DNA from: an uncultured Ruminococcus sp.
GTDB taxonomy: Bacteria; Bacillota; Clostridia; Oscillospirales; Acutalibacteraceae
Assembly: GCA_902772955.1 (NCBI GenBank)
Contig: CACYCV010000161.1
Span: forward strand, 9,561 to 41,560
Reading direction: 5' to 3'
DNA length: 32,000 bases
How positions within the stretch are numbered: position 1 is the first letter of the stretch; every line of letters begins with the position of its first letter. Made by a program: the position numbers and the translations under genes. Below, piece by piece: positions 755 to 22,828 of the stretch. The notes beneath the pieces were generated by a model. It worked only from the letters and a program-made list of their open reading frames with translations. It was not told the origin of the DNA and ran no database searches.

Positions 755-883
755 ATAGATGAGCGTAATTCTGTCAAACAGCCATTGATTTCGTTAATAA
801 ATTTAAGAAAAGAATGTGTGATTTACGGATTTGTGCGTTGGTTTTTCTTGTCCGGAACGCTCATTCAGATAGGAGCTGAAATC

Positions 884-3755: not shown

Positions 3756-3771
3756 TGTTTTTGACTCCCTG

Positions 3772-4341: not shown

Positions 4342-4343
4342 GC

Positions 4344-5003
4344 TTATACTCCCCTCTTGTCCGGATCCCAGATTATTTTATGCAGCTGCAGCTGTAGACG
4401 AACCATAGCAAGCTTCTTTTCTTTCATAAAATCCACTATTTCAGCGGGTGAAATCCTGCCGAATACAGGACTGAAATACACATGACAGTGTTCACACAAA
4501 TGATATTGTGTTAAAACAGCTTCAGCGCATACGAGGTCATTCTGATCTCCGATGACAAATTTGACGGTGTCCTGATGCTCCAGCAGGGAGAAATTATTTG
4601 TGTTCATTGCCGTCTGCATCCCACTGCCAGGCAGTTTATAGTCCATTGTAAAGACCGGACGCAGGGCTGCCTGAGCCAGTTCATTGAGAGGAAGGCTTCC
4701 ATTGGTTTCAATTTCTGTGCGCAGACCATTCTGTATCAGCAAAGCGGTCAGCTTTGGAAGATCCTTTTGCAAAAGAGGCTCTCCACCAGTCAGGGTTACA
4801 TTTTTTACACCGGCTTCTAATGCCTTTCTGCAAAGCTCGTCGGCTGTTATTTCAAGAAAAGGAGTGTCCTTTTCGTTTGCCCAACGGGTATCACAATAGG
4901 AACACTGTAAATTACAACCGTGAAAGCGGATAAAATATGACAGTTCCCCGGCTCTGGTTCCTTCTCCGTTGATACTCACAAAGGTTTCTACTACCTGGAG
5001 CAT
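4344..5003 (-). CDS. queE: 7-carboxy-7-deazaguanine synthase QueE (radical SAM)
   Basis: 219 aa. The radical-SAM cluster motif is CNLQCSYCDT. An AGGAGG RBS lies upstream. The gene overlaps the queD stop by 13 nt. Confidence 0.88.
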   Translation of the reverse strand: MLQVVETFVSINGEGTRAGELSYFIRFHGCNLQCSYCDTRWANEKDTPFLEITADELCRKALEAGVKNVTLTGGEPLLQKDLPKLTALLIQNGLRTEIETNGSLPLNELAQAALRPVFTMDYKLPGSGMQTAMNTNNFSLLEHQDTVKFVIGDQNDLVCAEAVLTQYHLCEHCHVYFSPVFGRISPAEIVDFMKEKKLAMVRLQLQLHKIIWDPDKRGV

Positions 5004-5428
5004 GGTTGATCCTCCTTATAGACGGCACCGTTTTCAGGTGTTTCATAGACCGTCACCTGACAAACAGGAAGCCCCTGTTCTTTCAACTGATGATAAAAAC
5101 GTTTTGCGAGGTTTTCTGCTGTCGGTCGGCAGGGAATCTCGATCACCAGGAAGCCTTCCTGAAGCATAGCCTCCATGGTTTTCGGCTGAAGGGTTTCCTT
5201 CTCAACAATCAGTGCGTGGTCGTATAGATCAGCAAGGGCTCTGACGGCTTTTTTAAAATCACTGAAATCCAGAATCATGCCTCTCTTCTCCCCTTCTGCC
5301 TGAAGGGCTTCTGATTGGATAACTACTTCCAGTACCCAATGATGACCATGAAGGCGGCTGCATTTACCGGAATAGCCTGACAAAAAATGAGCACTGTCAA
5401 AGGATGCGGATGTGATCAATTGAAACAT
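4991..5428 (-). CDS. queD: 6-carboxy-5,6,7,8-tetrahydropterin synthase QueD
   Basis: The start was trimmed to ATG 5428, which has GGGAGG upstream; the longer track ORF would read through the riboswitch and terminator. PTPS-type motifs SFDSAHFL and CSRLHGHHW are present. Confidence 0.88.
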   Translation of the reverse strand: MFQLITSASFDSAHFLSGYSGKCSRLHGHHWVLEVVIQSEALQAEGEKRGMILDFSDFKKAVRALADLYDHALIVEKETLQPKTMEAMLQEGFLVIEIPCRPTAENLAKRFYHQLKEQGLPVCQVTVYETPENGAVYKEDQPCSR

Positions 5429-5471
5429 AGTATTCCTCCCGGAATGAAGACAGCAGAGCATGGACGCCAAC

Positions 5472-5497
5472 AAAAAAGCGTCTGCAAACGCAGACGC
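5472..5497 (-). terminator. Riboswitch expression-platform terminator (attenuator) upstream of queD
   Basis: The minus strand reads GCGTCTGC-GTTT-GCAGACGC followed by TTTTTTG. It lies between the aptamer and the queD RBS. Confidence 0.8.
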
Positions 5498-5532
5498 ACC
5501 GATCAGGCAGAAGTAATTCTCTTCTGATTCAG

Positions 5533-5574
5533 CCCTGGTTTTGTTTAACGACAGGATGGTGCCAACGAACTGTC
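5533..5574 (-). promoter_or_regulatory. preQ1-I riboswitch aptamer
   Basis: The minus strand reads GACAGUUCGUUGGCACCAUCCUGUCGUUAAACAAAACCAGGG. P1 is GACAG/CUGUC and the loop begins UUCG. The A-rich tail UUAAACAAAACCAGG resembles characterised class I aptamers. A tail CCA can pair with a loop UGG to form the P2 pseudoknot. The element sits directly upstream of a preQ1 biosynthesis operon. Confidence 0.7.
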
Positions 5575-5605
5575 TATTCATTAGAATCGCTAACTGACAT
5601 ATTTT

Positions 5606-6011: not shown

Positions 6012-7760
6012 TTATTTTTCCACACGGAACACCCAGGCAGTGTAAGGAGGAAGGTCGGAATAAAGAGTGCCATCTGAAACGTTAAAAGAAGGATTGTCAG
6101 AATTGGAAGCAAACACCAGAGATACGCTTCTGCCGGCCGGGATGGGGACAGCATGGGACTGGGAATGATTATCAAAGTTAAAGACCGTCAGCAAGATTTC
6201 GTCTTTTGACCGGCGGGTTATGGCATAGACGTGTTTGTTCTCCTGATGACAGTCTGCCCATTCAAATCCGTCTGTTTGATAATCCTTCTCAAATAAAGCG
6301 GGATGAGACAGATAAAAATGCTGCAGCGCCTTCATGTAATTGTGAAAATCCTTGTGGCGGCTCTCGCCTAATAAATAAAAATCCAGTTCTCTCTTTTCGT
6401 CCCATTCACGGAACTGGGCCAATTCGTTGCCCATAAAATTCAGCTTTTTTCCGGGATGAACCATCATATAGGTGTAAAGCATTCTGGCCTGACGTATTTT
6501 TTCCTCTTCCGAGCCGAAGATTTTATTGACAATGGTTCCTTTTCCATGGACGACTTCATCATGTGAAAAGGGAAGCAGGTAGTTTTCATCCGAGTAATAC
6601 AGCATCGAAAATGTCAGCTTGTGATAAAGCTCGGTTCTTCTCTCAGGAGGTGCCGCCATGAAATCCAGGGTATCATGCATCCAGCCGAGATCCCATTTGT
6701 AATCAAAGCCAAGTCCGCCTTTGTCAGGGGAGCCTGTGATACCTTTGTAGCTGGTGCTGTCTTCTGCGATTAGCATACAACCGGGATTCATTTCTTTCAG
6801 TCGGCGGTTCATGTTTCTGACAAAATTGACGGCATTGGCATTAACTCCTCTGTGTTCGTCACCCTGCCAGAAAATAATATTACTGATGGCATCCATCCTT
6901 AAGCCGTCAAAATGATACTCCTTCAGCCAGAAATTGGCGCAGGACTGCAGGAAGCTGCGGACTTCTCCGCGGGAATGCATAAAGTTACAGCTTCCCCATT
7001 CACTTTTCCCTACATCCTGATGTGGATATTCATACAGGGCAGAACCATCGTAGCGATATAACGCATAAGCATCCACGGCAAAATGAACCGGAACATAATC
7101 CAGAATCACGCCGATATCATTCTGATGAAGCCTATCAATCAGCCTTTTGAGTTGGGTTGGATTACCATAGCGGGAGGTAGGAGAAAAATATCCAGTAATC
7201 TGATAGCCCCAGCTTTCATCACAGGGATGCTCACACAAGGGCAAGAATTCAACATAGTTATATCCGCCTTCCTTCAAATAGGGAATCAGAACATCTCCCA
7301 GGGAGTCGTAATCGTACCAATCATCCGGTTTTTCTGAGGGCTTGCGGAAAGAACCTGCATGCATCTCATAGATGTTCAGCGGCTTTTCCTTCATGTCGGA
7401 ACGTTTTTTCATCCACGCTTCATCATGAAATTGATATTGATTCATATCCCATAATACAGAACGATGGTCAGGTCGCCGTTCCATCCAATAACCATAAGGG
7501 TCACAATGATTGACGCAGCCGTTGTTGGAGCAAATACGGTATTCGTATTTGCTGCCAAAGGAAAAATCAGAAACCGTCACCTCATAGAATTGTCCGTTAT
7601 AGACCTTTTGCATGGGAATGATGCGATCGTTCAGCACCAGATCAACTCCCTGTGCCTGGGGTGCAAAGGTACGGAAGGTTACAGTGTTTCCGTTAACGTG
7701 GGCGCCAAGGTATTCATAAGCATCAAAGACTTCTCCCGTATAAAAGCCATAATAATCCAT
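6012..7760 (-). CDS. glgB: 1,4-alpha-glucan branching enzyme GlgB (GH13)
   Basis: 582 aa. GH13 catalytic regions are present: HFDGLRMDA, IAEDST and FSHDEVVHGK. The N-terminal CBM48-like region is TFRTFAPQAQGVDLV. A GGAGG RBS lies upstream. Confidence 0.9.
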   Translation of the reverse strand: MDYYGFYTGEVFDAYEYLGAHVNGNTVTFRTFAPQAQGVDLVLNDRIIPMQKVYNGQFYEVTVSDFSFGSKYEYRICSNNGCVNHCDPYGYWMERRPDHRSVLWDMNQYQFHDEAWMKKRSDMKEKPLNIYEMHAGSFRKPSEKPDDWYDYDSLGDVLIPYLKEGGYNYVEFLPLCEHPCDESWGYQITGYFSPTSRYGNPTQLKRLIDRLHQNDIGVILDYVPVHFAVDAYALYRYDGSALYEYPHQDVGKSEWGSCNFMHSRGEVRSFLQSCANFWLKEYHFDGLRMDAISNIIFWQGDEHRGVNANAVNFVRNMNRRLKEMNPGCMLIAEDSTSYKGITGSPDKGGLGFDYKWDLGWMHDTLDFMAAPPERRTELYHKLTFSMLYYSDENYLLPFSHDEVVHGKGTIVNKIFGSEEEKIRQARMLYTYMMVHPGKKLNFMGNELAQFREWDEKRELDFYLLGESRHKDFHNYMKALQHFYLSHPALFEKDYQTDGFEWADCHQENKHVYAITRRSKDEILLTVFNFDNHSQSHAVPIPAGRSVSLVFASNSDNPSFNVSDGTLYSDLPPYTAWVFRVEK

Positions 7761-10471: not shown

Positions 10472-11476
10472 TCATGCAATGGCATGTCGATAAAATGAAA
10501 GCACCTGGTTCATATAATTTTCATCAAGAATATTTGCCTGATGTTTGTCCGTGGGGTTATCGGTTTTGGCAAGATAACGGGCAGCATCCTCCCGGAGCCA
10601 GAGAGTATTATGCCCGCCCCGATAGGGAGCTTCAATCAGTAGAGTAACCGCATTTGGGTTGGTGATTTCATCCTTTTTGTGCAGGATACTGATATCCTCC
10701 GTGACGATGTCGTCAGTGTTTCCGCCAATGATCAGAACAGGTGTCCTGACGGAATTAACGGCAGCTATGACAGTTTCGTTGGAATCATTTCCGAAGAGGA
10801 AATAATTTTGCAGGCACATAAAGGGGTATTGCAAATCGGCCAGAAAACCCACATAGCGTCTGGCATGATGCAGCATATTTTCGTTGGGTTCATTGAAGCC
10901 GGCAACGCAAACCGCTGCCCGGATGCTGTCATCATCCTGCAGAGCTGTTCCCACCGCATATCCGCCAAGAGAATGGCCGTAGAGCAGAAGCGGAAGCCAA
11001 CAGAGGTCTGATCTGCTCCGGATATACGCTATGGCAGACCTGACATCCAGCCGTGCCTGGGCAATTCCCACGGTTCCGTTTCCCTGACTGTGTCCTACCC
11101 CTGTGTATTCAAAGGTGAATACGGAAAAACCGTTGTCTACAAACCAAAGTATTTCCGGCAAATGGCGGTCAATACAACAGTTCATTCCGTTTGCCAACAG
11201 AATAATTCCGCTTGATTTCTCTTTCGGCTGGTACAAGCATCCAAAAAGCTGTTGATTTCCTGATGGAAACCAAAGCTCTTCACGGGGATACCGATCCTGA
11301 TCAATGTCATCGTAGGTCAGCTCATAAGGGGCAATGGAACCGGAGCGGGAAAAGATGATCTGAAAAATGATAACGGATCCCGCCATGGATACCACCACAT
11401 AAGAAAGAGTGGAAACGATCAGAATAATGCACACCTTCCTGATTCGCCGTCGTTTAGGTGTCACCGGCTTTTTCAT
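10472..11476 (-). CDS. Membrane-anchored alpha/beta hydrolase (paralog 1)
   Basis: An N-terminal TM helix is present (VCIILIVSTLSYVVVSMAGSVIIFQIIF). The nucleophile elbow is GHSLGG. The later Asp and His contexts are GGNTDDIV and YRGGHNTLW. The start was set to ATG 11476 (AAAGGAAGAG RBS); the track start is 11515. Confidence 0.75.
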   Translation of the reverse strand: MKKPVTPKRRRIRKVCIILIVSTLSYVVVSMAGSVIIFQIIFSRSGSIAPYELTYDDIDQDRYPREELWFPSGNQQLFGCLYQPKEKSSGIILLANGMNCCIDRHLPEILWFVDNGFSVFTFEYTGVGHSQGNGTVGIAQARLDVRSAIAYIRSRSDLCWLPLLLYGHSLGGYAVGTALQDDDSIRAAVCVAGFNEPNENMLHHARRYVGFLADLQYPFMCLQNYFLFGNDSNETVIAAVNSVRTPVLIIGGNTDDIVTEDISILHKKDEITNPNAVTLLIEAPYRGGHNTLWLREDAARYLAKTDNPTDKHQANILDENYMNQVLSFYRHAIA

Positions 11477-11521
11477 AAGACTCTTCCTTTCTATTTTGGG
11501 CTGTCTGAACAACATTTATAC

Positions 11522-11551
11522 AAAAAAAGCACCGACATCGATCGGTGCTTT
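11522..11551 (-). terminator. Intrinsic terminator ending the 11-gene lipid operon
   Basis: The minus strand reads AAAGCACCGA-TCGATG-TCGGTGCTTT followed by TTTTTG. It lies directly after the stop of the last gene (11557). Confidence 0.8.
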
Positions 11552-11556
11552 CGTCA

Positions 11557-11973
11557 TTACAGTTTACCAAGCTTGCTCATAGCAACGGAGGTTTTCAGTG
11601 CGTCAGGGTGCTGAATGGCCATGATAATTAGGAAGGTATAAAGGATTGTCATGCCGATACTTGCAAAGATACCGGCAATAGCAAGCTTCTTGCCAATCCG
11701 GACCTGCTTTGAGATATCACCATAGGTCGAAACATAGTTATTGGCCTTAACGATGCCAATAATGGAAAAAATCAGACCGAAAATAGCCAAGCAACAGCCA
11801 ACAGCCACAGATACAATACCAAATACCAATACCTGAACGTGATTTCCCTGTGATTGTGTGCCCATAGAAGAATTGGGCTGAGTTTGATAGGGTGCTGCTC
11901 CGGCAACGGGTGTTCCACACCTCGGGCAAAAAAACTGCCCATCAACGGGTGTTCCGCATTTCTGACAAATCAT
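11557..11973 (-). CDS. Zinc-ribbon membrane protein (two C-terminal TM helices, DUF4190-like)
   Basis: The start is at ATG 11973 (AGGAG RBS). The CxxC...CxxC motif is MICQKCGTPVDGQFFCPRCGTPV. A Gln/Ser-rich linker and two hydrophobic helices follow. Confidence 0.65.
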   Translation of the reverse strand: MICQKCGTPVDGQFFCPRCGTPVAGAAPYQTQPNSSMGTQSQGNHVQVLVFGIVSVAVGCCLAIFGLIFSIIGIVKANNYVSTYGDISKQVRIGKKLAIAGIFASIGMTILYTFLIIMAIQHPDALKTSVAMSKLGKL

Positions 11974-12011
11974 AGAATACTCCTTTCCTGCAGTTTCCTG
12001 CAAACACAAAA

Positions 12012-12986
12012 TCATTCGCCGAGAATACCATCGGTTACTGTCTTATTATGACATAATTCTCCTAAAAAATCAACTATTACCTGATCATATTTTTCCGAAG
12101 CATGTATTTTTATATGAGAATGTGCCCCTTTTTCAAAATACACCAGTCGTTTAGGAGCAGGGCACTGCTCATACAAGACCTTGGCCTTTTCAGGAAGTGA
12201 AAAAATGTCTTCTTTGCTTTGCAGCATCAGAATAGGCTTTCGCAGGTTTCTGATCCGGAAAATCGGTCCGTCTTTTTTGATATCATAGCCTGAAAACAAT
12301 CGTATATAGCCCCGAAGCTCCCATAAGGCCGGATAGACCGGCTGATGAAAGGCCTTGATGCGATAATACAGCATATCATAGAACCGGGTAAACATTCCCT
12401 CGCTTGTCATTCCCTGCACATAATCGGGACAGTCTCCGGAGGTCAGGGCAAACAGCGCATGAGAAGCGCCGATGCAGATTCCGTGAAGAAATACCAGTTG
12501 ATTATTCATCTCATCATGCAGCATGCGGCACCAGCAGAGCACATCCTGGTATTCCCGATAGCCAAGGGAGTTGACTACGCCATCGGATTTTCCATGAGAA
12601 CGGCAGTCTATTACCAGAACATTATAGTCCGCCCTGCGGTAGGCTTCGGCAAAATAATAGGAGTATAACATAGACTCCGTTCTGCCGGAGATAATGATTA
12701 CAGCTTTGTCTGAGTTAAAATCAAAATACTCACCGAACAAATGATACTTGCCGCTGTAGAGATCGACAGGACAACGACGCCTGACGTACTTCTCTGCCCA
12801 TTCCAGGCCTGTATAATACATTTCTGTGATTTCTTTATCCTTTGGGACGCTGCATTTTCTGGCCCATTTTCCCTTTCGGGTACGTACCAGCAATATCAGG
12901 TACAGAACGGCCGGGACAATGATCAAAGGAGCAATAACCAGAAAAAATACAGCAATTCCTATCAGAATTCCAATCCAGATATTCAT
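12012..12986 (-). CDS. Membrane-anchored alpha/beta hydrolase (paralog 2) with Cys at the nucleophile position
   Basis: An N-terminal TM helix is present. The elbow reads HGICIGAS, aligned with GLSMG and GHSLG in the paralogs. The Cys171 codon TGC is at 12474-12476. The Asp and His contexts are SKEDIFS and EKGAHSH. Confidence 0.75.
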   Translation of the reverse strand: MNIWIGILIGIAVFFLVIAPLIIVPAVLYLILLVRTRKGKWARKCSVPKDKEITEMYYTGLEWAEKYVRRRCPVDLYSGKYHLFGEYFDFNSDKAVIIISGRTESMLYSYYFAEAYRRADYNVLVIDCRSHGKSDGVVNSLGYREYQDVLCWCRMLHDEMNNQLVFLHGICIGASHALFALTSGDCPDYVQGMTSEGMFTRFYDMLYYRIKAFHQPVYPALWELRGYIRLFSGYDIKKDGPIFRIRNLRKPILMLQSKEDIFSLPEKAKVLYEQCPAPKRLVYFEKGAHSHIKIHASEKYDQVIVDFLGELCHNKTVTDGILGE

Positions 12987-13018
12987 CCGTTTTCCTCGCT
13001 TTTCTATTAACGATGGGG

Positions 13019-14683
13019 TTATACAAGTCCAAGAATCCAGTGATAGACACTCTGTCCCCCGTTGACAAATTCAACATCCAGAGTGGGATAGGCTTCACCC
13101 AGCGCCCGCAGCAGGATTTCCTCGTGTTCCTCCGGAACACCTTCTCCGCGGAAAACCACGCAGGTTTCCTTATCCTCCATATCCTCCACTTCCTGAAGAC
13201 CCTGCATAATCGGCGTAAGCCATTGATTGCTGACACAAACAAGATGATGATCCAGCAGCAGGATCTCGTCTCCCTTCCGGCAGCTGACAGATCCCTCGGT
13301 ATAATCCCGGAAGGCAGTTGTTTCACAAAGTGTAACGGTGTTTTCCATGCCGCCGGTCATTTCACTGATGCGAAAATCAATGTCGGTACTATTGCTGACA
13401 TCCATTGCCATGGCGAAATAACCTTCTGCGATGCTTTTGGAGGGAAGCACGGTGACTATTTTTTTATCGTACAGTTTGATAGCTTGCTGCGCGGCAAGAA
13501 TCACATTCGGATGGTTGGGAAGAACGACGATAGCATCTGCGTCCAGGCCGGCAAAGGCATCCAGAAACTCCTGGGATGAGGTATTCATGGTGGAACCGCC
13601 GTCAATGACAACGTCACATCCCAGATCGGAAAATATCCGTTTCATTCCTTCTCCGTTGGCAACCGCAACGGTAGCCAGCAGCTTGTGAATTTTCCTGGGC
13701 TTCTGAGAGGAAAGCAGCTTTTCATGTTCGTTGTGCTGAACCTGCATATTTTCCAGCTTAAAGGTCAGAAACTCGCCGTAACGCTGGCTAAGCAGAATTA
13801 CCTTCGCTGGGGACAGGGTATGAATATGTACCTTGATCCGTTTTTCGTCCTGAACCACGACCAAAGAATTGCCGCATTCCTTCAAGGCTTCTATATATTC
13901 CTCCAGCACGAAATCCTGCCGGTAGCAGGGTGCCTTCAGCAGCTGCAGAATATACTCCATACAGTAGCCGTCCTGAAAGCTGCTGTTTTCATCAAACAGA
14001 TCAAATCCGGCTCCGGTGGAAGCAGTGCTTTCTTCAGGAGCAGTGTCACTGATGATCTCTCCCCTGAGATAAGAGAGAATTCCCTCGGTAATCGTAATAA
14101 ATCCAAGGGCACCGCTGTCAACCACGCCGGCCTCTTTGAGTACAGGAAGCAGTTCCGGCGTTTTATCAAGGAGATTATTCATCGTGGAAAGATAGCGGGA
14201 AAGAAAATCCTCTAAACTCAATTCAGGTGTAACGGAATCCCTGATGGTTTCGATCCCCTCCCGGGTGACGGTGAGAATGGTTCCTTCTGTGGGGTTGACA
14301 ACCGCCTTATAGGCGACCTGATAGCCCTTGACCAGACCTTGACTGTATTCTACCGTTCCGATGGACTGACAATCCCGAAGCACAAGACTAAAGCCCTTGA
14401 AAAACTGAGACAGGATCACGCCGGAATTCCCTCTGGCACCCAGCAGCATCCCTTTGCTGAAGCGTTCCATATAAGCGCCGAGATGATTATCTGAGCCGGC
14501 ATATCGGATGCCGCTTTCCAATGTCAGACGCATATTGGTTCCGGTATCTCCGTCTGAAACAGGAAAAACATTCAGGCGGTTTATTTCCCGTTCCAATTGT
14601 CGGAGTCTTGCCAGTCCGTTTTTCAGCATTTTTTCAAACTGTAAGCCGTCAATTCTTTTTTCGCTCGTCACGGTGGTGATCAC
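13019..14683 (-). CDS. fakA: Dak2-domain fatty-acid kinase subunit (FakA / YloV family)
   Basis: 554 aa. The DhaL/Dak2 motif is FPVSDGDTGTNM. Size and domain order match YloV/FakA. The GTG start overlaps the stop of the upstream DegV gene (GTGA). Confidence 0.75.
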   Translation of the reverse strand: MITTVTSEKRIDGLQFEKMLKNGLARLRQLEREINRLNVFPVSDGDTGTNMRLTLESGIRYAGSDNHLGAYMERFSKGMLLGARGNSGVILSQFFKGFSLVLRDCQSIGTVEYSQGLVKGYQVAYKAVVNPTEGTILTVTREGIETIRDSVTPELSLEDFLSRYLSTMNNLLDKTPELLPVLKEAGVVDSGALGFITITEGILSYLRGEIISDTAPEESTASTGAGFDLFDENSSFQDGYCMEYILQLLKAPCYRQDFVLEEYIEALKECGNSLVVVQDEKRIKVHIHTLSPAKVILLSQRYGEFLTFKLENMQVQHNEHEKLLSSQKPRKIHKLLATVAVANGEGMKRIFSDLGCDVVIDGGSTMNTSSQEFLDAFAGLDADAIVVLPNHPNVILAAQQAIKLYDKKIVTVLPSKSIAEGYFAMAMDVSNSTDIDFRISEMTGGMENTVTLCETTAFRDYTEGSVSCRKGDEILLLDHHLVCVSNQWLTPIMQGLQEVEDMEDKETCVVFRGEGVPEEHEEILLRALGEAYPTLDVEFVNGGQSVYHWILGLV

Positions 14684-15615
14684 TCCGATGCATTCAGTAA
14701 TTTCGTGAAAAGTTCCTTCTCTTCCTGCAGATCCTTCGAAATGGATTTTCCCATATAATAGGCCGCCATCAGACCAGGTCCGATATTAATGCCGGAACCA
14801 GGAAAGACATCTACAATTCGGATTTCCTTGGGATGAATGGTTTCTTCGATCATTTTTTTATACTGCTCAGCCTGCGGGAGCCGGTTGGACTGGGCGATAA
14901 AAATCATCTGAGTTTCCGGATGCTCAATGGTAGCGGCGATATACTTCAAAAGAACGCTGTAGGCTTTTTTAGCTCCCTTTGCCTTGCCTAGGACAGTTGT
15001 CATTCCGTTATAGTCGAATTCTCCGATGGGCTTGACGCCGATCAGTGTTCCCATCAGGGCCGCGGCATGATTGATTCTACCCTTTTTGGCAACAAAGGAA
15101 AGATCGTCCAACCAGCCCGCCTGATGATAACGACATTTGTTTTCTTCAATCCAGGCGGCAGTCTCTTCCAGCGTTTTTCCTTGGCTGCGAAGCAAAGATG
15201 CACGGACAGCAATCAGTCCAAAGCCTGGTCCGAAGCGCAGGGAGTCAATGAGACGGATATCCGCATGGGGGTATTCTTCCTTGACCTGCTCGATACCCTT
15301 TGCGGCAAAACTGTAGCTTCCGCTCATGGTTGAGGACATGGTGATAACAAGAATGCCATAGCCCTGCTTGAGATATTCTCTGAAGGCTTCTGCAAACAAT
15401 TCAGGGTTTGGCGGTGAAGTGGAATAGCCGTTGGGATTCTTTTTCAGCTTATTGTAAAAATCTTCCCGGTCATAGGTTTTCCAGCTCAGAAACTGCCTGA
15501 TATCCGTATTATCCGGCAGATGAATGTGGCCGACAACCGTCTTGATGTCGAATTCCTGCTGCATCTCTTCGCTGAGATCAGAGGTGCCGTCTGCAATGAT
15601 GATGAATTTCTTCAT
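14680..15615 (-). CDS. fakB: DegV-family fatty-acid-binding protein (FakB-type)
   Basis: 311 aa. The N-terminus is typical of DegV (MKKFIIIADGTSDLSEE). The gene is translationally coupled to the Dak2/FakA gene. Confidence 0.7.
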   Translation of the reverse strand: MKKFIIIADGTSDLSEEMQQEFDIKTVVGHIHLPDNTDIRQFLSWKTYDREDFYNKLKKNPNGYSTSPPNPELFAEAFREYLKQGYGILVITMSSTMSGSYSFAAKGIEQVKEEYPHADIRLIDSLRFGPGFGLIAVRASLLRSQGKTLEETAAWIEENKCRYHQAGWLDDLSFVAKKGRINHAAALMGTLIGVKPIGEFDYNGMTTVLGKAKGAKKAYSVLLKYIAATIEHPETQMIFIAQSNRLPQAEQYKKMIEETIHPKEIRIVDVFPGSGINIGPGLMAAYYMGKSISKDLQEEKELFTKLLNASE

Positions 15616-15621
15616 GGTTTT

Positions 15622-16572
15622 TCACTCCTTTGAAAAATCAGGGAAGTAATGTCTGACAAATGACAAGAGAACCTGTTCTGCCCGCTGTCGATCCTCCAGG
15701 AAACTGAGAGTATGGTGTCCGTTTTCCATCAGGAGAAATTCTTTTGGAGAGGCACAGGCATCATAGATAACCTGTCCCCAGTGTGGATCAACGGTCAGAT
15801 CGTTGGTTCCCTGTACCACCAATACCGGGCACTTTGCATGAGAAAGTGCTGCTGTAGTGGGGGTTTTGATATCAACATGAAAGAAGATTCCGGCCATCAG
15901 ACGTTCTGTCAGAAGGAGAATCTTCGGTATGTGACGCTTAATGGCGTCGCTTCGCATCTGTTCATGGACAGAATAGTAGCAGCTGTCCAGCACAATGCCA
16001 CGTACAATGTCCGGATCCAACGTATCAGAGGCATAGGCAATGGCCGAGGCACCCATGGACAAGCCGTAAAGCAGTATCTGCGTTGCCCCCTGCTTCTGTG
16101 ACCATTGGATCCAGGAAAACACATCTTTTTTTTCACGCAGTCCGATGGTGGTCCAGTGTCCCTCACTCTGACCGTGAGAACGGTGGCAGATTAACAAAAC
16201 ATTAAAGCCGTTCCTACGGAAGAAATCAGCCTGTCCGGAACAGTTGGTGTACATTTCTGCCCCAAGGCCATGAAAGATAATTGCCGTACGGGGATAACCG
16301 CCGTCATAGTATTCGCCGTAAAGCTTTAATCCATCATAGGAAACAGTGCTGACCGGATGATGCTCTTGTGAAAGGATACTGCTGCGGGCTGAGGCGATTC
16401 TGTCCAGATATGGAATATAATAGTGATTGCGAAAACGCTTCCGATTATACTGCTCAAAAGGTACCGATTTTTTTCTTCTGAAAACCAAAACAAAAACCAC
16501 CAGGGTGGGAGCGATGATAAACACCAGCAAGCAGGCGGCGGCAATCAGAAGAATGATTCCCCAGACAGACAT
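15622..16572 (-). CDS. Membrane-anchored alpha/beta hydrolase (paralog 3)
   Basis: An N-terminal TM helix is present (VWGIILLIAAACLLVFIIAPTLVVFVLVF). The elbow is GLSMGAS. The Asp and His contexts are QGTNDLTV and ENGHHTL. A GGAGGGTG RBS lies upstream. Confidence 0.75.
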   Translation of the reverse strand: MSVWGIILLIAAACLLVFIIAPTLVVFVLVFRRKKSVPFEQYNRKRFRNHYYIPYLDRIASARSSILSQEHHPVSTVSYDGLKLYGEYYDGGYPRTAIIFHGLGAEMYTNCSGQADFFRRNGFNVLLICHRSHGQSEGHWTTIGLREKKDVFSWIQWSQKQGATQILLYGLSMGASAIAYASDTLDPDIVRGIVLDSCYYSVHEQMRSDAIKRHIPKILLLTERLMAGIFFHVDIKTPTTAALSHAKCPVLVVQGTNDLTVDPHWGQVIYDACASPKEFLLMENGHHTLSFLEDRQRAEQVLLSFVRHYFPDFSKE

Positions 16573-16584
16573 ATCTTCACCCTC

Positions 16585-17430
16585 CTACATAAAACGCTTT
16601 TTGCCAAGCAATGCAGCAAAGTCATTTTCCACCCAGAAGTATCTGGCTGCTGCTGCATTTTTTCCGCTGATGGAAACGGGGATTTCCGGCTCTCTCAGTG
16701 TCTTGACCACATCGCCGTCCGGAGTATCTGTTCTGAGAATGACAGCCTCATTGGATACGGCAACAGCGGCAACGGATCCGGTACTGCTCATGGAAAAATG
16801 GAAGCTGCTGCAGACCCATTTTCCGCTGAGCTTTCGTTTCAGTCCGGCTTTTGACAAATCCGTGTGAAAGGAACGTTCCGCTGCAATCGACATAAGCCTC
16901 CAGCAGGTGATTACCCTGCGCCGTTCTTCCTCCTGACGGAAGGCCTGAATCTCCCGCAGGAGCTTTTCCGGAAGTGTATCCGGTATCGCATGTGCATCAG
17001 TGACAGCCGACAGATAGACATCGCAGATCCGTTGATTCGCCCATCGTTTTCGGACCTCCTCTTCCTGACTGCAGCGAGAGATGCCGAAGATACATTCATT
17101 GACAAAATGCTCACAGTTATGATGGATCAGATCATAACCTCCCTCTCCCAGACGGGAGCGGGCTTTCCGGATCGTTTCCTCAGGAGGAAAGCGCTTCTTC
17201 AGCTCGCCTCGTTCGAGGCAGGCAGTTTCTATGATACAGCCGCAGGAAAAAACGTCAATATTGGTGGCAAGAACAACGACTTCTCCTTCGGCTGCCCGGT
17301 TTTCCGCAGTAGGAGGCAGTCCGAACTGGATGATCTCATTTTCACTGACAAAAATCCCGTAATGATAGAGCGCTCCCAGGCGAACCCGGATCATATCACC
17401 GGGATGACATTCTTTTGGCTCCCATTTCAT
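16585..17430 (-). CDS. LRAT/PLAAT-like (NlpC/P60 superfamily) Cys-His acyltransferase/phospholipase domain fused to a degenerate Sfp-type PPTase-like region
   Basis: The N-terminal His box is LYHYGIFV and the catalytic-Cys motif is HHNCEHFVNE. The C-terminal ~150 aa follows the Sfp pattern (GKW...FHFSMSSTG; FWVENDFAALLGKK versus W-x-KE-x-x-K). It lacks the G-I/V-D-x-E metal motif. Confidence 0.6.
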   Translation of the reverse strand: MKWEPKECHPGDMIRVRLGALYHYGIFVSENEIIQFGLPPTAENRAAEGEVVVLATNIDVFSCGCIIETACLERGELKKRFPPEETIRKARSRLGEGGYDLIHHNCEHFVNECIFGISRCSQEEEVRKRWANQRICDVYLSAVTDAHAIPDTLPEKLLREIQAFRQEEERRRVITCWRLMSIAAERSFHTDLSKAGLKRKLSGKWVCSSFHFSMSSTGSVAAVAVSNEAVILRTDTPDGDVVKTLREPEIPVSISGKNAAAARYFWVENDFAALLGKKRFM

Positions 17431-17684
17431 GACAATGCGCCCTCGATATAGCTGATAACATCTCCGACGGTCTGGAATTCGTTCATGGAAACGCCGGAGA
17501 AGCGGATCTGAAATTCCTCTTCTGTGGCAATAATCAGATAAAGCATATTGACTGAGGTCAGTCCCAGGTCATATTGCAGGTTGGTTTGTTCATCAATCGT
17601 TTCGATGATGTCACCGCTGCGCTCATCCATAGAATAGAGAATTCCTTTTAAGCGTTCCAGTATTTCTTTTTTACTCATTGACAT
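17427..17684 (-). CDS. Stand-alone acyl carrier protein
   Basis: 85 aa. The phosphopantetheine-site context is DLGLTSVNMLYLIIATEEEF (compare DLGLDSLD...EEEF). It overlaps both neighbours (ATGA with the LRAT gene). The alternative start at ATG 17678 forms ATGAGTAA with the stop of the upstream adenylase gene (17671-19182). Confidence 0.8.
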   Translation of the reverse strand: MSMSKKEILERLKGILYSMDERSGDIIETIDEQTNLQYDLGLTSVNMLYLIIATEEEFQIRFSGVSMNEFQTVGDVISYIEGALS

Positions 17685-19182
17685 TTTTGTATCTCACAAT
17701 CTTTAGACTTGGTGTTCTTTCAAAATCCTTCTCACGGATTACCATCCTGCTGACCTGTTGAAAGGACGGAAGACCGGCATTGATTTTCTGGCATTCCTGG
17801 AGAACATAGGCATTAACATCCACGGTTCCCAGTTTGGCAGCCTCTGATGCCCGCAGAACAATTTCCAGGGCAAGAAAGCGATTGCCCTTTTCATCCTGAT
17901 CCTCAAAGACCTGGGTATCCTGGATAATGGGCAGGGCGTTGAATTTGGCTTCCAGCTCTGCCGGAGAAATATTTTCGCCGCTGGGGAGAACAATTACTTC
18001 CTTGATTCTGCCGGTGATATAGAGAAAACCCTCTTCGTCCATACGCACCAGATCGCCGGTTTTGAACCAGCCGTCTTCATAGGCATCCGTTTCATCTGTG
18101 CCTACATAACCATCCATCATGTTCTTACCTTTCAGCCACAGTTCTCCGTCTACAATGCGGTATTCCATTTCCGGATAGATCAGTCCGACAGAATCCGGTT
18201 TATTCAGGAATTCCGGATTGCCGGAAACCAGGTTAGCCGATTCCGTCAGGCCATAACCAGGATACAGGTCGATACCATATTGCTGATATTCTTTTGTCAA
18301 ATAAGGCGGTACACTGGCTGCTCCGCAAATAATGGTATGCAAGCTGTTGCCTAACATCATTTTGCCAAACTTTTTGGAAAGTGCCAGTGTCATTTCTGCC
18401 AGTGCAGGCACCATGATCATGATAGTCGGCTGAAAGACGGCGGCATCACGGAACATATCCTTGTTATCGCGGCAAATCTTTAACGTGCTCCCGGTGTAAA
18501 GTGACGCCATCAGATTGCGGATCAGACCAAACACATGAAACAGGGGCAGAACCAGAAGATATCGCTGACCAAAGGATTTCGGAAGGCCGAGACAGCTATT
18601 GATCGAACCCTGCATAACTGCCGTATGGGAAAGAAGGGCACCTTTGGGACGTCCTGTTGTCCCGCCTGTCATCATGATGACGCACTCGTCCTTTCCCTCA
18701 CACGGTACCGACGGGGTTGCTTCCGATGCGGTTGTTTCCGGGAGAATAACCGGAAAAGCGGGATTCATCTTTTGCAGCAGATTTCCTTTTTCGGCATGAT
18801 CTGTAATCAGCATGGAAAATCTCAGCATCTGACTCAGCCCGAATAATTCTTTCTCCTGCAAATGAGGCGGCAGAATCACGGCAGTACATCCCAGTGTTAC
18901 CGTGGCAAGAAACGCTTTGACCAGATCATAGCAATTGGGCATGCACAAGGCAATGCGTGTTTTTTCCACTCCCTGTTCTTTCAGAACGGTTCTGAAGCAG
19001 GCAACGTCCTGTGACAGGGTTTGATAAGAATATTGCTTGTCCAGATCTTCGATGGCAATTCTGTCACTGTACTCTTTGGACCTTGCCTCCCACATATCCG
19101 TCAAAGACGGATAATGAATGATTTTTTGAAAGGTTTCCTCGCCGGTAAAACGACGGTAAAGTTCCAAGGTATCTGCTATCAT
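17671..19182 (-). CDS. Adenylate-forming enzyme, long-chain fatty-acid ligase-like (ANL superfamily)
   Basis: 503 aa. Canonical motifs are present: TGGTTGRPKG, GYGLTE, FKTGD and GRIKEVIVLPSGENISPAELE. An AGGAGG RBS lies upstream. Confidence 0.85.
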   Translation of the reverse strand: MIADTLELYRRFTGEETFQKIIHYPSLTDMWEARSKEYSDRIAIEDLDKQYSYQTLSQDVACFRTVLKEQGVEKTRIALCMPNCYDLVKAFLATVTLGCTAVILPPHLQEKELFGLSQMLRFSMLITDHAEKGNLLQKMNPAFPVILPETTASEATPSVPCEGKDECVIMMTGGTTGRPKGALLSHTAVMQGSINSCLGLPKSFGQRYLLVLPLFHVFGLIRNLMASLYTGSTLKICRDNKDMFRDAAVFQPTIMIMVPALAEMTLALSKKFGKMMLGNSLHTIICGAASVPPYLTKEYQQYGIDLYPGYGLTESANLVSGNPEFLNKPDSVGLIYPEMEYRIVDGELWLKGKNMMDGYVGTDETDAYEDGWFKTGDLVRMDEEGFLYITGRIKEVIVLPSGENISPAELEAKFNALPIIQDTQVFEDQDEKGNRFLALEIVLRASEAAKLGTVDVNAYVLQECQKINAGLPSFQQVSRMVIREKDFERTPSLKIVRYKNVNE

Positions 19183-19199
19183 TTGAATAGTCCTCCTGT

Positions 19200-19844
19200 T
19201 TAAAGTTTTTTGGCATATTCTTCAAGTATGGTTTCCTTTTCCTGAAGCTCCTTCGTAATGGCTTGTATTTTGGCAAATGACGGTCTTCCCCCACTGGCGG
19301 CGACAATATCCACCGGTTCTCCGATTACCGCTTTCAAACGGGAATACCAATGCTTCCGGGGCTTGATATACATCGGCACAATTGGACACCTGCTCTGGAT
19401 AGACATCAGAATCATACCGGATTTGAACTGACTCATTTCGTCCCGGTAGATATGTCCCTCCGGAAAAATCGTTACCATTTTTCCCTCTTTCAGGGTGTCA
19501 GTAATAGTGCGGAAGGAGTCGATGCTGACATTATCGGCATGAATGGGGATCATACAGCCGGCTGCACGAAAAAGAGGGGCTGCCCGGGATTCCATCAGCG
19601 TATGATGGCAGACAAAATATTGCCGACGGTACCAGACGGAATACATGGTGTGCAGGGGATCAAAAAAGCTGGTATGATTGGCTATCAGAAGAGTACCGCC
19701 CCGGATTTTTTTGCGGGCTTCCCTGGAAATAAAGCGTATTTTAGGTCGGAGCCAGATAAAACCAGGGAACCATCCGGTAATGCGGACAAAATCCATCAGA
19801 AAGCATCTGAGAGAAAATAATTTAGCCTTTTGAGGTTTGTTCAT
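19200..19844 (-). CDS. PlsC/LPLAT-family acyltransferase (copy 2)
   Basis: 214 aa. The HX4D motif is NHTSFFD. FPEGHI and PIVPMY are also present. It overlaps the upstream paralog by 23 nt. Confidence 0.8.
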   Translation of the reverse strand: MNKPQKAKLFSLRCFLMDFVRITGWFPGFIWLRPKIRFISREARKKIRGGTLLIANHTSFFDPLHTMYSVWYRRQYFVCHHTLMESRAAPLFRAAGCMIPIHADNVSIDSFRTITDTLKEGKMVTIFPEGHIYRDEMSQFKSGMILMSIQSRCPIVPMYIKPRKHWYSRLKAVIGEPVDIVAASGGRPSFAKIQAITKELQEKETILEEYAKKL

Positions 19845-20463
19845 GTAACTGACGCTCCAATCGGATGATTTTTTCCCGCAGGGCAGCAGAGATTTTTTCG
19901 AGATTTTCTTTTTCTGTCAGGGAATCGTCTACATAGTCTCTTGCATACACTGGCGTACCAATGATAACCCTTGCTCGTTTTTTACAGAAATAGGCGCCGT
20001 TGGTATAAACCGGAATGATCGGTATATTGTTCATCAGACTCAGATAGGCCGTTCCCGGTTTGAACGGAAGGGGCCTTTCTTCTCCATTTTTGGGAAGACG
20101 TCCCTCCGGAAAAATCTGAACGACGCCGTGCTTTTCAAGTACGGACTGTGATTTTCCCATAAATCCGAACTGCATACTGTCCCGGTCCACCCGGATTCCT
20201 CCCATCATTCTGAGAAAAAGACCTAACAGCTTTTTTCGGAAAAGCACCTCTGCCATTTGTGTTCTCAGAGTCCGGAAGAAAAAAACAAATAAAAAAACAG
20301 CATAATCCCACACAGATGTGTGGTTTGATATCAGAATGGCCGGCCCATTGATGTGACGACTCTGAATTTTTTTGTCTTCATAATAGACCTTTGTACGAAA
20401 AACCGCCTTCTGAACAGGGTAACCGGTTATCTTGACAAAGGCATTCCAAAGCTGAATCAACAT
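19822..20463 (-). CDS. PlsC/LPLAT-family acyltransferase (copy 1)
   Basis: 213 aa. The HX4D motif is NHTSVWD. FPEGRL and PIIPVY are also present. The start overlaps the upstream stop (ATGTTGA). Confidence 0.8.
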   Translation of the reverse strand: MLIQLWNAFVKITGYPVQKAVFRTKVYYEDKKIQSRHINGPAILISNHTSVWDYAVFLFVFFFRTLRTQMAEVLFRKKLLGLFLRMMGGIRVDRDSMQFGFMGKSQSVLEKHGVVQIFPEGRLPKNGEERPLPFKPGTAYLSLMNNIPIIPVYTNGAYFCKKRARVIIGTPVYARDYVDDSLTEKENLEKISAALREKIIRLERQLHEQTSKG

Positions 20464-22394
20464 GATTTTGAATTTTCCTTCATGTATTGATAGAATTCCT
20501 CGGCGGTGCGCAGCGTCTGATCATCCTGCCGGAGAAAGGAAACGCCATAGTCCTCCTGAAGTCTGGCGGTAAGTGCCATATAATCCAGACTGGTGCCTCC
20601 CAGATCCAGAAAAAAGTCCGTTTCCGGTGATATTTCACTGAGATCCTTTTCCAGCACTGCCGCCATCATTTGCCGGAGGGTTCGCATCAGCTCGTCCTCT
20701 TCCTCCCTGTCGGCAGCGGAATCGGGCGTTACCTGACGCAGCTTGCCCGCCGCATAATCCTCACGCAGGCGCTTGCGGTTGAGCTTAAATTCATCTCCCA
20801 GCATCAGCTTATCTGAGATATAAACAATCCTGCCCAACTGACCTGTCAGATGAAGCTCTGTCAGCTTATCCTTTAATCGGCTATCCAGCTGTTCCAGCTG
20901 GCTTCCCTCGCAATAACGATTGACCGATACCAACAGCACAGGGGTATCCTTGCTGGGGATGATGCAGACGCCGTTTGTTCCTTCGATACTAAGCTGAGGC
21001 TCGTACAAATTGGGATTGAGATTTTCTCCGTTGGAGGAGACAATCAGATCATCTGTCCGGCCAAGAATACGGTATTCCCCCCTGACGCATTCTGCGAGAT
21101 CATGGGTATTAAACCATTTTTCAGGATCGGTCATGGTTTTTTGGCCGTTTTCAATGATATAGCGGGCGACAACCTTTCCCCTCACCAACAATTCACCGTC
21201 ATCATTGATAGAATATTCGGCATAGGTCATTGGTTTCCCGACAAAGCAGGCATTCAGAATTTTGGGCCGGTTGGAAAGCTCCACGGAGGTAATGCCGATT
21301 TCTGTCATGCCGTAGCCGTCAGCCAACCGGTAGCCGATAGCATTAAAAAACTCCATGACTTCCGGACGAATGGCGCTGCCGCCGGTAATCAGGATACAGA
21401 TACTTTCACCGAAAAGATTCTCTCTGACCTCCTTGAAGGCAGTCCGTGAAAACAGGTGACTCAATGCGGTCATGCCGGATAGCTTCCGCGAGAGTTTCAT
21501 TCCCTTTTGAAATTTCCGATAAGTTTTTTGTCCCCTTCCCCTGATGGTTTTGATTGCCTGGTCATAAACCGTTTCCCAGAACAGAGGGACAGCAAAGATA
21601 TGCGTTACTTTATGTCGTTTAATCGTATTGACAATGGTCTGTGGGGTCATATCATTGAGATGCACAAAGGTTCTTGAGAAAAATGCAAACCAGATGTACA
21701 TGGCAATCAGACCGAATACATGATAGAATGGCAAAAAAGTCAGCAACTTCAGATATCCGTCATAATGACGCTTGAACAAAGAGCATTTTTGGATAAGGTG
21801 ATAGCTGTCATGAATCTGACACCGGAACTCCTTGGCGGAATAGGCACAGATTTTGATATGATCGGAGGTACCGGAGGACATCACCAGGATTTCTTCTCCG
21901 AATTTCCGGGGCTTCCATGGGGGTTCTGTTTTGACAAGCTCCTTAGTGTCAATAGTAGGAAAAGAATAGCTCCTTTGATCGGACAAAACGGCACAAGCAT
22001 GACTATCCTTCAGAGCTTGCTCCAATACGTCATCACTCAGACGAAGGTTCATCAGCAGCGGACACCAGCCGCAAAGGAGAATAGCCCAAAATAACTCAAT
22101 CCACAAAAGGGAATTCTCCATACTCAGACCGACGACCGCATTATCCGGCAGGTCAAGCCGCTGTTTCAGTGTGGCTGCCAGTAAATAGATTTCCTCCTTG
22201 GCTTCTCCATAGGTGGTAATCTGCATCCGGTAGCCTTCGCTTTTTTCATACATCCGGTTTTCTGATTCACTGAACATTAATTCAAACAGAGATGAAAAAT
22301 CCGGTTCTGACTGATCCAACAGTTGTAGCTTAGCTTCCACAAAGCGATTAATGGTTTTATGAGTTCCTAAGCCGAGATTTTTCTGTTTTTTCAC
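20457..22394 (-). CDS. Divergent adenylate-forming enzyme fused to a C-terminal PCP-type carrier domain (A-T didomain)
   Basis: 645 aa with a GTG start and an AGAGGAAGGAAG RBS. ANL motifs GYGMTE, NTHD and GRTDDLIVSSNGENLNP are present. The P-loop-like motif is degenerate (SSGTSDHIK). The C-terminal carrier motif is DFFLDLGGTSLDYMAL. Confidence 0.8.
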   Translation of the reverse strand: MKKQKNLGLGTHKTINRFVEAKLQLLDQSEPDFSSLFELMFSESENRMYEKSEGYRMQITTYGEAKEEIYLLAATLKQRLDLPDNAVVGLSMENSLLWIELFWAILLCGWCPLLMNLRLSDDVLEQALKDSHACAVLSDQRSYSFPTIDTKELVKTEPPWKPRKFGEEILVMSSGTSDHIKICAYSAKEFRCQIHDSYHLIQKCSLFKRHYDGYLKLLTFLPFYHVFGLIAMYIWFAFFSRTFVHLNDMTPQTIVNTIKRHKVTHIFAVPLFWETVYDQAIKTIRGRGQKTYRKFQKGMKLSRKLSGMTALSHLFSRTAFKEVRENLFGESICILITGGSAIRPEVMEFFNAIGYRLADGYGMTEIGITSVELSNRPKILNACFVGKPMTYAEYSINDDGELLVRGKVVARYIIENGQKTMTDPEKWFNTHDLAECVRGEYRILGRTDDLIVSSNGENLNPNLYEPQLSIEGTNGVCIIPSKDTPVLLVSVNRYCEGSQLEQLDSRLKDKLTELHLTGQLGRIVYISDKLMLGDEFKLNRKRLREDYAAGKLRQVTPDSAADREEEDELMRTLRQMMAAVLEKDLSEISPETDFFLDLGGTSLDYMALTARLQEDYGVSFLRQDDQTLRTAEEFYQYMKENSKSC

Positions 22395-22429: not shown

Positions 22430-22458
22430 ATTATACTACAAATAGCGACACGTTTCAA
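22430..22458 (-). promoter_or_regulatory. Sigma-A promoter of the lipid operon
   Basis: The minus strand has TTGAAA (22458-22453), a 17-nt spacer and TATAAT (22435-22430), about 35 nt upstream of the GTG start. Confidence 0.65.
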
Positions 22459-22502: not shown

Positions 22503-22531
22503 TTGACAAGCATAATCTGTCATGCTATAAT
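22503..22531 (+). promoter_or_regulatory. Sigma-A promoter of the trp operon
   Basis: TTGACA (22503-22508), a 17-nt spacer, then TATAAT (22526-22531), with TG at 22523-22524 (extended -10). Confidence 0.75.
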
Positions 22532-22537
22532 CATTGA

Positions 22538-22828
22538 AAATCGGATATATAAACCGATGATGCGGAGATAACGGCATGGATGCCTTTACAGAGAGCCTGT
22601 GGTGCTGAGAGTCAGGTAAGAAACACTATGTCAAATGGACCGCTGAGGGCGCAGCCAAAGGGGATTCTTCCCTCAGTATGCTGTGACGTTGCAGGCAGAC
22701 GTTACCTGCCGGGGATATGTTGGTATCTCGCAGAGGGCACGGGTTTTCCGTGAATGTAAGGTGGCACCGCGAATTTGTTGATTCGTCCTTAGCAGAATTC
22801 TGGATTCTGTTAAGGATTTTTTATTTTT
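22538..22828 (+). promoter_or_regulatory. T-box riboswitch leader, Trp-specific
   Basis: Stem I elements are present (AGAGAG...GGTGC...AGAG). The candidate specifier is UGG followed by A (22636-22639). The T-box sequence is AAGGTGGCACCGCG (22758-22771). The terminator is TCCTTAGCAGAAT/ATTCTGTTAAGGA (22786-22816) followed by TTTTTTATTTTT. It lies directly upstream of the trpE RBS. Confidence 0.85.

Follow-up and report, generated by a model that had tools for sequence, protein, structure and literature searches.

A probably dead phosphopantetheinyl transferase-derived domain fused to an LRAT/PLAAT-like domain in a putative lipid operon of a rumen Ruminococcus-like bacterium

Can the fold of a phosphopantetheinyl transferase (PPTase) persist in a protein after its catalysis has gone, and what would it do there? 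The question is raised by a gene at 16585..17430 of a 32,000-nucleotide stretch of DNA from an uncultured Ruminococcus sp. (assembly GCA_902772955.1, contig CACYCV010000161.1, positions 9,561 to 41,560), which is analysed here as a whole and called the window. The gene lies on the minus strand, as does the rest of its operon. It is an open reading frame (ORF) with an ATG start and a stop codon at 16585-16587, and encodes a protein of 281 amino acids (aa) in which an LRAT/PLAAT domain is joined to a pseudo-PPTase domain; the ORF had been reported in a preliminary description made from the letters of the DNA, and is present as described there. The best explanation of the data, to which we give a probability of about 60%, is that the protein combines one live LRAT domain with one dead PPTase-derived domain, the latter being kept as a folded, selected, non-catalytic module. 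Annotation pipelines label these proteins 'LRAT family' only, missing both the PPTase ancestry and its functional loss.

The 288 proteins recovered in a homologue search fall into two size classes, one of ~282 aa resembling the window protein (short forms) and one of ~345 aa (long forms), in which Pfam ACPS (PF01648) is precomputed alongside LRAT. The unique homologues number 194, with 103 short and 91 long forms. Short forms originate from rumen metagenome-assembled genomes (MAGs) labelled Ruminococcus sp. or Clostridiales, and long forms from MAGs of Oscillospiraceae, Lachnospiraceae, Christensenellaceae and other Clostridia. The window protein is 41-51% identical to intact long fusions such as P0088. 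Its AlphaFold2 (AF2) model has no disordered part and scores 92.3 in the predicted local distance difference test (pLDDT), with a predicted template-modelling score (pTM) of 0.63. One further protein, P0121 (435 aa), has a glycoside hydrolase family 26 (GH26) region at residues 82-309 followed by a segment (302-434) that is 43% identical to the pseudo-PPTase domain of the short forms; it is probably an assembly or gene-call chimera.

The N-terminal domain (residues 1-126; 17053..17430) is assigned by Pfam, PDB sequence matches and Foldseek to the LRAT/PLAAT (NlpC/P60-type) Cys-His acyltransferases/phospholipases. Residues 7-117 match Pfam LRAT (PF04970) with E=1.4e-16 and 61.4 bits (cut-off 24.3), and solved PLAAT3/HRASLS structures are matched by sequence at E ~4e-7, with NCEHF aligned on NCEHF. 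A Foldseek search of the PDB with the N-terminal domain of the AF2 model retrieved HRASLS2/PLAAT3 (4DPZ, 7ZOM, 4FA0) at E ~2-3e-6 and target template-modelling (TM) scores of 0.74-0.77, showing that the model adopts the papain-like alpha+beta fold of the PLAAT proteins. His23 (17362..17364), the catalytic His of the LYHYGIFV box, aligns to His23 of PLAAT3 and is present in 82/83 short and 34/34 long homologues. The N105-C106-E107-H108-F109 motif (17104..17118) contains Cys106 (17113-17115), the predicted acyl-accepting nucleophile, and is invariant, cysteine included, in 117/117 homologues (83 short, 34 long). The LRAT/PLAAT domain recognized in the preliminary description, with its His box and NCEHF cysteine, is thus borne out by family profiles, solved structures and conservation.

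The C-terminal domain (residues 127-281; 16588..17052) consists, by hhalign, Foldseek and phmmer, of a complete first PPTase lobe and only the beta-strands of the second. Searched alone, residues 128-281 gave nothing in Pfam even at E<=10 and nothing in NCBIfam, and a profile of 25 diverse short-form C-terminal domains gave nothing meaningful among the PDB sequences; Pfam ACPS was found in 0/25 short and 22/24 long C-terminal domains. Because the Pfam, NCBIfam and PDB-sequence searches were empty, the domain is not a PPTase by sequence thresholds, and its homology was shown via the long relatives, via structure and via a full-library phmmer search. The profile of the long C-terminal domains matches Sfp (1QR0, 4MRT) with E=3.5e-10 across Sfp residues 16-161, placing the long-form His, Asp, Glu and Trp-x-Lys-Glu on H90, D107, E109 and W147-K150-E151 of Sfp, and it also matches AcpS and the PPT domains of fungal fatty acid synthase (FAS). 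Short- and long-form profiles align with each other in hhalign with 100% probability and E=1.9e-47, interrupted by a single 64-column gap. When the C-terminal domain of the window protein was compared with the PDB in Foldseek, AASDHPPT, Sfp, PptT, PptAb and AcpS were found (best E=1.7e-4) over ~113-124 columns, the equivalent of one lobe; the two-lobe pseudo-dimeric PPTase fold was not recovered. The model of the intact relative P0088 (pLDDT 91.5) matches Sfp across 216/225 columns with E=1.3e-9.

The phmmer search, in which the C-terminal domain alone was compared with 1.84 billion representative proteins, gave 232 matches at E<=1e-3 and reached stand-alone PF01648 proteins with E down to 1e-11. 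Many of the matches are stand-alone proteins of 200-225 aa, in which the matching residues are ~5-105. Seven of eight such proteins scanned with Pfam contained ACPS, six of them above the Pfam threshold, and the ACPS match sits on the second half of the protein; the stand-alone P0127 scored 22.4 bits for ACPS against a cut-off of 25, and P0125 had no ACPS match. The G203-K204-W205 motif (16816..16824), by profile alignment the counterpart of Sfp G74-K75-P76, is kept in both clades, G203 and W205 being invariant. The C-terminal domain of the window protein is therefore a true homologue of Sfp-type PPTases by common descent. The Sfp-type pattern that the preliminary description had seen in this half of the protein is a real resemblance and not chance: profile and structure comparisons, proposed there as the check, were run and found PPTase-fold similarity, as did phmmer.

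In Sfp, Mg2+ is held by Asp107, Glu109 and Glu151, and His90 is the histidine that binds coenzyme A (CoA). The long forms show the corresponding motifs V-G-V-D-x-E, F-S-L-S-H-T and W-T-K-K-E-x-x-F-K in the alignment; the short forms lack them and have a gap of ~65 columns. In the window protein, F212-SMSSTG218 (16777..16797) is, by alignment to the long-form profile, the degenerate counterpart of Sfp F86-NISHSG92, with Ser216 at the position of His90. The equivalent histidine is found in 97% of the long forms and is lost in the short forms. I231-L-R-T-D235 (16726..16740) aligns as a degenerate counterpart of G-[VI]-D-x-E (Sfp G105-E109); G-x-D-x-E is present in 34/34 long forms, and the short forms have S/E-L-R/S-L-N/G/D instead, with S-L-R-L-N/G as the clade consensus. 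Shortly thereafter, at residues ~238-239 (16714..16719), lies the approximate junction of a deletion of ~64 residues, located from the hhalign gap and the secondary structures of the models. Compared in this way, helices 236-254, 257-262 and 268-285 of P0088, of which 268-285 is the W-x-K-E helix, have no counterpart in the window protein, and the four beta-strands that follow them are retained. The preliminary description had stated correctly that GKW and FHFSMSSTG are present and that G-x-D-x-E and W-x-K-E are missing. Its reading of 'FWVEND...' as a degenerate W-x-K-E was wrong by profile alignment and secondary structure: FWVEN aligns with a C-terminal beta-strand of the intact relatives, and the W-x-K-E helix itself is deleted.

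Across the family, 103/103 short forms have lost the His, the G-x-D-x-E acids (Asp and Glu) and the Lys-Glu pair, and 80/91 long forms have kept them all. The C-terminal domain of the window protein has none of the Mg2+ ligands, no W-x-K-E helix and no His90 equivalent; by its sequence it is a PPTase-derived pseudoenzyme domain and not a PPTase. The 11 remaining long forms (P0100, P0110, P0115, P0116, P0120, L024, L030, L043, L052, L059 and L066) have single or multiple catalytic substitutions, for instance Glu of the K-E pair to Gln or Asp to Ala. All are fusions of full or almost full length, and their changes (K-E to K-Q, D to A, H to L/C/S) suggest repeated independent loss of PPTase activity in the fusion family. 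By neighbour-joining, the short forms make up a near-monophyletic group that has L052 (326 aa) inside it and P0100 (333 aa) as its sister. Because these two proteins are full-length yet already degenerate and group with the short clade, the loss of catalytic residues appears to have come before the deletion. L066 (299 aa) decayed independently.

The remnant is relaxed yet clearly under purifying selection. Across 17 short-clade genes, the ratio of non-synonymous to synonymous substitution rates (dN/dS) has a median of 0.30 in the remnant against 0.12 in the LRAT domain, at synonymous sites that are partly saturated; in the long clade dN/dS is too saturated for a clean baseline. The ORF is intact in the 103 short variants, with ~155 remnant residues maintained without frameshift or stop codon.

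The fusion gene is the sixth of 12 genes in an operon spanning 10472-22394, which also encodes two acyl-AMP ligases, two carrier proteins, three paralogous alpha/beta hydrolases and a DegV/FakB plus FakA pair. The first gene (20457..22394) encodes a 645-aa fusion of AMP-binding and PP-binding domains according to Pfam, the latter being a peptidyl carrier protein (PCP) domain whose C-terminal translation shows an intact GGTS serine motif. It is followed by two Aas-like acyltransferases of the PlsC type (Pfam PF01553; 19822-20463 and 19200-19844), for which the best NCBIfam match is acyl-[ACP]--phospholipid O-acyltransferase NF006386 (E=8e-20 and 6.5e-16, respectively). The fourth gene (17671..19182) encodes an AMP-forming acyl ligase resembling FadD/MenE (Pfam AMP-binding, E=4e-57, and NCBIfam) that is predicted to load the acyl carrier protein (ACP) encoded by the fifth (17427..17684; 85 aa; Pfam PP-binding, NCBIfam ACP), in which Ser44 (17553-17555) is the phosphopantetheine site. 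After the fusion gene come, by Pfam, a membrane-anchored alpha/beta hydrolase (15622-16572), DegV/FakB (14680-15615), FakA (13019-14683), a second alpha/beta hydrolase (12012-12986), a Zn-ribbon membrane protein (11557-12015) and the third hydrolase. A consensus scan gave a promoter-like site upstream of the operon (TTGAAA-17-TATAAT, 11/12; 22430..22458) and a strong terminator-like hairpin with a 12-bp stem and T-run after the Zn-ribbon gene (11525..11552). The ACP stop codon and the fusion-gene start overlap in an ATGA at 17427..17430, indicative of translational coupling, and a GAGGG Shine-Dalgarno-like motif is located ~10 nt upstream of the start. The overlap had been pointed out before and is real; the identical 4-nt overlap is kept in 67/81 related loci (20 with short and 47 with long forms).

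Taken together, the operon looks like a system for exogenous fatty-acid scavenging and phospholipid acyl-chain remodelling. A Clostridial fatty-acid-amide (OaaC) cluster of the non-ribosomal peptide synthetase-like type was considered as its identity and rejected, there being no condensation domain here. A literature search on the operon found no paper, and no member has apparently been characterised.

The gene order of the window is common to L001, L084 and, in a tblastn survey, ~85 loci from gut and rumen Clostridia. The operon of the intact fusion P0088 (L001) is syntenic with that of the window, and the short homologue P0045 is found in an identical operon with different flanking genes. 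The P0088 operon has an additional gene for a 103-aa protein (6643-6954), without a Pfam match, between the AMP-PCP fusion and the first PlsC gene, which is absent from the window. In another variant (L085, and also L086) the operon has neither an LRAT domain nor the second AMP ligase, and an MFS (major facilitator superfamily) transporter gene is located between DegV and FakA; here a stand-alone PPTase, P0126 (224 aa; L085 8001-8675), is encoded directly after the ACP gene and overlapping it, in the same operon slot. The second ligase is absent from L042 and L053 as well, where the LRAT-PPTase fusion is present. Because P0126 occupies the slot and the other close stand-alone PPTases are found in housekeeping gene contexts, the position after ACP is ancestrally that of an in-cluster PPTase for the carrier proteins of the operon. 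No locus examined encodes LRAT separately; it is always joined to a PPTase-type domain.

A pathway of decay would connect these states. In the ancestor, a stand-alone PPTase in the slot, translationally coupled to the ACP gene, would have primed the ACP and PCP of the operon. The next state, in many Clostridia, would be a fusion of LRAT and PPTase in which no catalytic motif is missing. In the rumen Ruminococcus-like lineage of the window, the catalytic residues would have been lost first and the 64-residue helical segment afterwards. Because the ligand residues and the W-x-K-E segment are lost, the remnant would be unable to bind Mg2+ or CoA or to transfer phosphopantetheine, leaving the carrier proteins to be primed elsewhere. 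Priming would still be required, since the ACP serine is invariant (Ser44 in 23/23 short-clade and 58/58 long-clade loci) and the GGTS motif of the PCP is intact. In the N-terminal domain, Cys106, activated by His23, would become acylated as a thioester, from which the chain would go on to water or a lipid acceptor. The simplest reading of the whole is lineage-specific decay of an in-cluster PPTase, not the design of a docking module.

Several observations weigh against the picture of a live LRAT domain with a dead, selectively kept partner. The dN/dS of the remnant is above that of the LRAT domain, with the saturation mentioned earlier, and two residues conserved family-wide are changed in the window protein (R133 to Q and R157 to L, R157 aligning with Sfp K28). 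The position of PLAAT3 His35 is Gln35 in the window protein and in 81/83 short forms, and Q/A/E/G in the long forms; going by the alignment, a Cys-His dyad accompanied by a polar third residue that varies describes the LRAT active site best. The acyl-thioester chemistry of Cys106, like the acyl donor and acceptor, is expected by analogy with the LRAT/PLAAT family. A second PPTase-like ORF was not found within ±10 kb in the window and ~85 related loci (profile of the intact domain, E<1). With the fused domain dead, it follows that both carrier proteins would be primed in trans by a PPTase encoded elsewhere in the genome, an enzyme that is assumed and not seen. Canonical docking of a carrier protein is also unlikely, because the second-lobe helices with the main carrier-protein patch are deleted. 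The hydrophobic patch of Sfp to which helix II of the PCP binds is in the C-terminal portion (PMC8857579). The second lobe of human PPT makes up the major ACP patch with F144-M148, F173 and W177, and the first lobe, with the minor patch F51-A54, provides one of three contact patches (PMC2148441). Any tether in the window protein would need the first lobe and electrostatics.

For the present role of the remnant, two possibilities are put forward tentatively. It may still tether the acidic ACP via the surviving first lobe and its basic surface, bringing acyl-ACP to Cys106, or it may equally do nothing but support the folding or stability of the LRAT domain; other partners or ligands account for the rest. 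The preliminary description had proposed that the C-terminal region is a specialised non-catalytic carrier docking module delivering acyl-ACP to the Cys-His acyltransferase, a version that we regard as doubtful. The coupling to the ACP gene in 67/81 loci and the constant fusion of LRAT to a PPTase-type domain would fit it, but both were inherited from ancestors with an active PPTase and so provide no argument for a new docking role. The opposite net charges of the remnant (+6) and the ACP (-9), the purifying selection (dN/dS ~0.3) and the complete, confidently folded first lobe, whose equivalent in human PPT has one ACP-contact patch, also speak for docking; against them stands the deletion, as in Sfp and human PPT the counterpart of the missing 64 residues holds the main helix-II patch, with the W-x-K-E Trp among its residues. 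That the PPTase fold has been turned into a non-catalytic ACP receptor, holding ACP against an LRAT-type thiol enzyme, is unlikely. If it were true, the protein would be the first bacterial LRAT-family enzyme acting on acyl-ACP and the first PPTase-derived pseudoenzyme, and part of an undescribed fatty-acid scavenging/phospholipid-remodelling pathway widespread in gut and rumen Clostridia.

Open to similar doubt as the docking module is the view that the remnant itself binds neither ligand nor partner, the LRAT domain having evolved to fold or stay soluble against it. Relaxed selection relative to the LRAT domain (0.30 vs 0.12) is consistent with such dependence, as are the loss of all functional motifs and of further family-conserved residues in the window protein, and the 11 independently part-decayed long forms, in which PPTase activity was repeatedly dispensable. 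A loop of the LRAT domain, T41-A-E-N-R45 and E48-G-E50 (17281-17310), is nearly invariant in the short clade and variable in the long forms; it may be an interdomain contact, and may represent a new interface gained after PPTase decay. However, some 155 residues have been kept free of frameshifts and stops in 103 variants, conserved residues of surface type persist (e.g. the basic K-R-K-L-G-G-K-W), and the pTM of 0.63 gives no sign of tight interdomain packing. Binding of the 3'-phospho-ADP part of CoA or acyl-CoA by the remnant, as a donor supply or sensor for LRAT, is improbable. The first lobe, which contacts the adenosine 3'-phosphate in Sfp, is complete, G203-K-W205 (Sfp G74-K75-P76) is kept and R157 (Sfp K28) is present in most family members, but the His90 equivalent is lost throughout the short clade, the window protein has Leu at 157, and neither the second lobe nor the Mg2+ site is left to complete the CoA pocket. 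Weak residual PPTase activity, or a decaying pseudogene or annotation artefact, is still less probable. Asp235 of the window protein does sit at the Glu109 position, yet the clade has lost the His, the entire W-x-K-E helix and all three Mg2+ ligands, and the intact ORF in 103 variants, the purifying selection and the good predicted fold argue against a pseudogene or artefact.

LRAT/PLAAT enzymes have been studied almost only in animals, where acyl chains are taken from phospholipids, the usual acyl donor of the family. The window protein shares with this family (PF04970; human PLAAT3, 4DOT/7ZOM) the fold (TM ~0.75), the His box, the NCEHF Cys and the expected acyl-Cys chemistry. It differs from PLAAT3 in being bacterial, apparently soluble and without a C-terminal membrane anchor, in the replacement of His35 by Gln, in its fusion to a domain of PPTase descent, and in the position of its gene immediately behind that of an ACP. 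The last two features suggest a thioester donor, acyl-ACP, instead of or besides phospholipid. By analogy, acyl-ACP is plausible as the donor for the LRAT domain because there is no membrane anchor and co-translation pairs the protein with an ACP expected to be acylated by the neighbouring ligase; phospholipid is the alternative donor.

With the Sfp-type PPTases (PF01648; Bacillus subtilis Sfp, 1QR0/4MRT; human AASDHPPT, 2C43) the C-terminal domain shares ancestry and the first-lobe fold, and its ancestors had an equal in-cluster role beside a carrier protein. Unlike Sfp, it has no equivalents of His90, Asp107, Glu109, Lys150-Glu151-Lys155 and three second-lobe helices. The closest counterparts of the whole protein are the intact Clostridia LRAT-PPTase fusions (~345 aa, such as P0088), which are known as database entries only. 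They share the operon slot and the LRAT domain, making the window protein their positional orthologue, and they keep the PPTase motifs and the two-lobe fold, whereas the window clade is a dead, shortened derivative. Covalent joining of a PPTase to a protein of the pathway it serves is likewise found in the PPT domain of the fungal FAS alpha-subunit (2WAS/2UV8), but there the PPTase is active and fused to the ACP-bearing synthase, while here it is fused to an LRAT enzyme and inactive in the window clade. Escherichia coli Aas (acyl-ACP synthetase/2-acyl-glycerophosphoethanolamine acyltransferase) has in common with the operon an acyl-AMP ligase, a carrier protein and a PlsC-type acyltransferase; in the operon these functions are split over genes, duplicated, and joined by LRAT, three alpha/beta hydrolases and FakA/DegV.

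A literature search for an LRAT-PPTase fusion or a dead PPTase found no describing paper. The remark in the preliminary description that this architecture had not been seen described stands for the literature, but the architecture is not unique: the slot is taken by LRAT+PPTase fusions, intact or almost so, in no fewer than 91 cases across Clostridia. The fusions form a family not yet characterised, of which the window protein is a truncated derivative without catalysis, and its dead domain may be nothing beyond a retained scaffold. LRAT fused to an ACP-priming enzyme in a 10-12-gene operon occurs in Oscillospiraceae, Lachnospiraceae, Christensenellaceae and rumen Ruminococcus-like bacteria, and points to an uncharacterised exogenous fatty-acid route in abundant gut and rumen anaerobes. 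The three states of the slot (stand-alone PPTase, active fusion and dead truncated fusion) form a natural series in which a helper enzyme turns redundant, dies and persists as a domain, and the series offers ready constructs for asking what the PPTase fold does without catalysis.

Elsewhere in the window, a T-box leader (Rfam RF00230, 95.3 bits; 22548-22793, plus strand) with a terminator-like hairpin at 22785-22817 precedes a trpE/trpG/trpD... operon starting at 22843. A perfect sigma-70-like promoter (22503-22531) is located before the leader and is divergent from the promoter of the lipid operon. A queuosine precursor operon (2575-5581, minus strand) encodes QueD/PTPS, the radical S-adenosylmethionine enzyme QueE, GTP cyclohydrolase I, QueC and QueF; across the whole window, no preQ1 riboswitch scored as high as the Rfam gathering cut-off. 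A 532-aa protein encoded at 785-2383 (plus strand) has a trypsin-like serine peptidase domain and, at its C-terminus, an FHA (forkhead-associated) domain.

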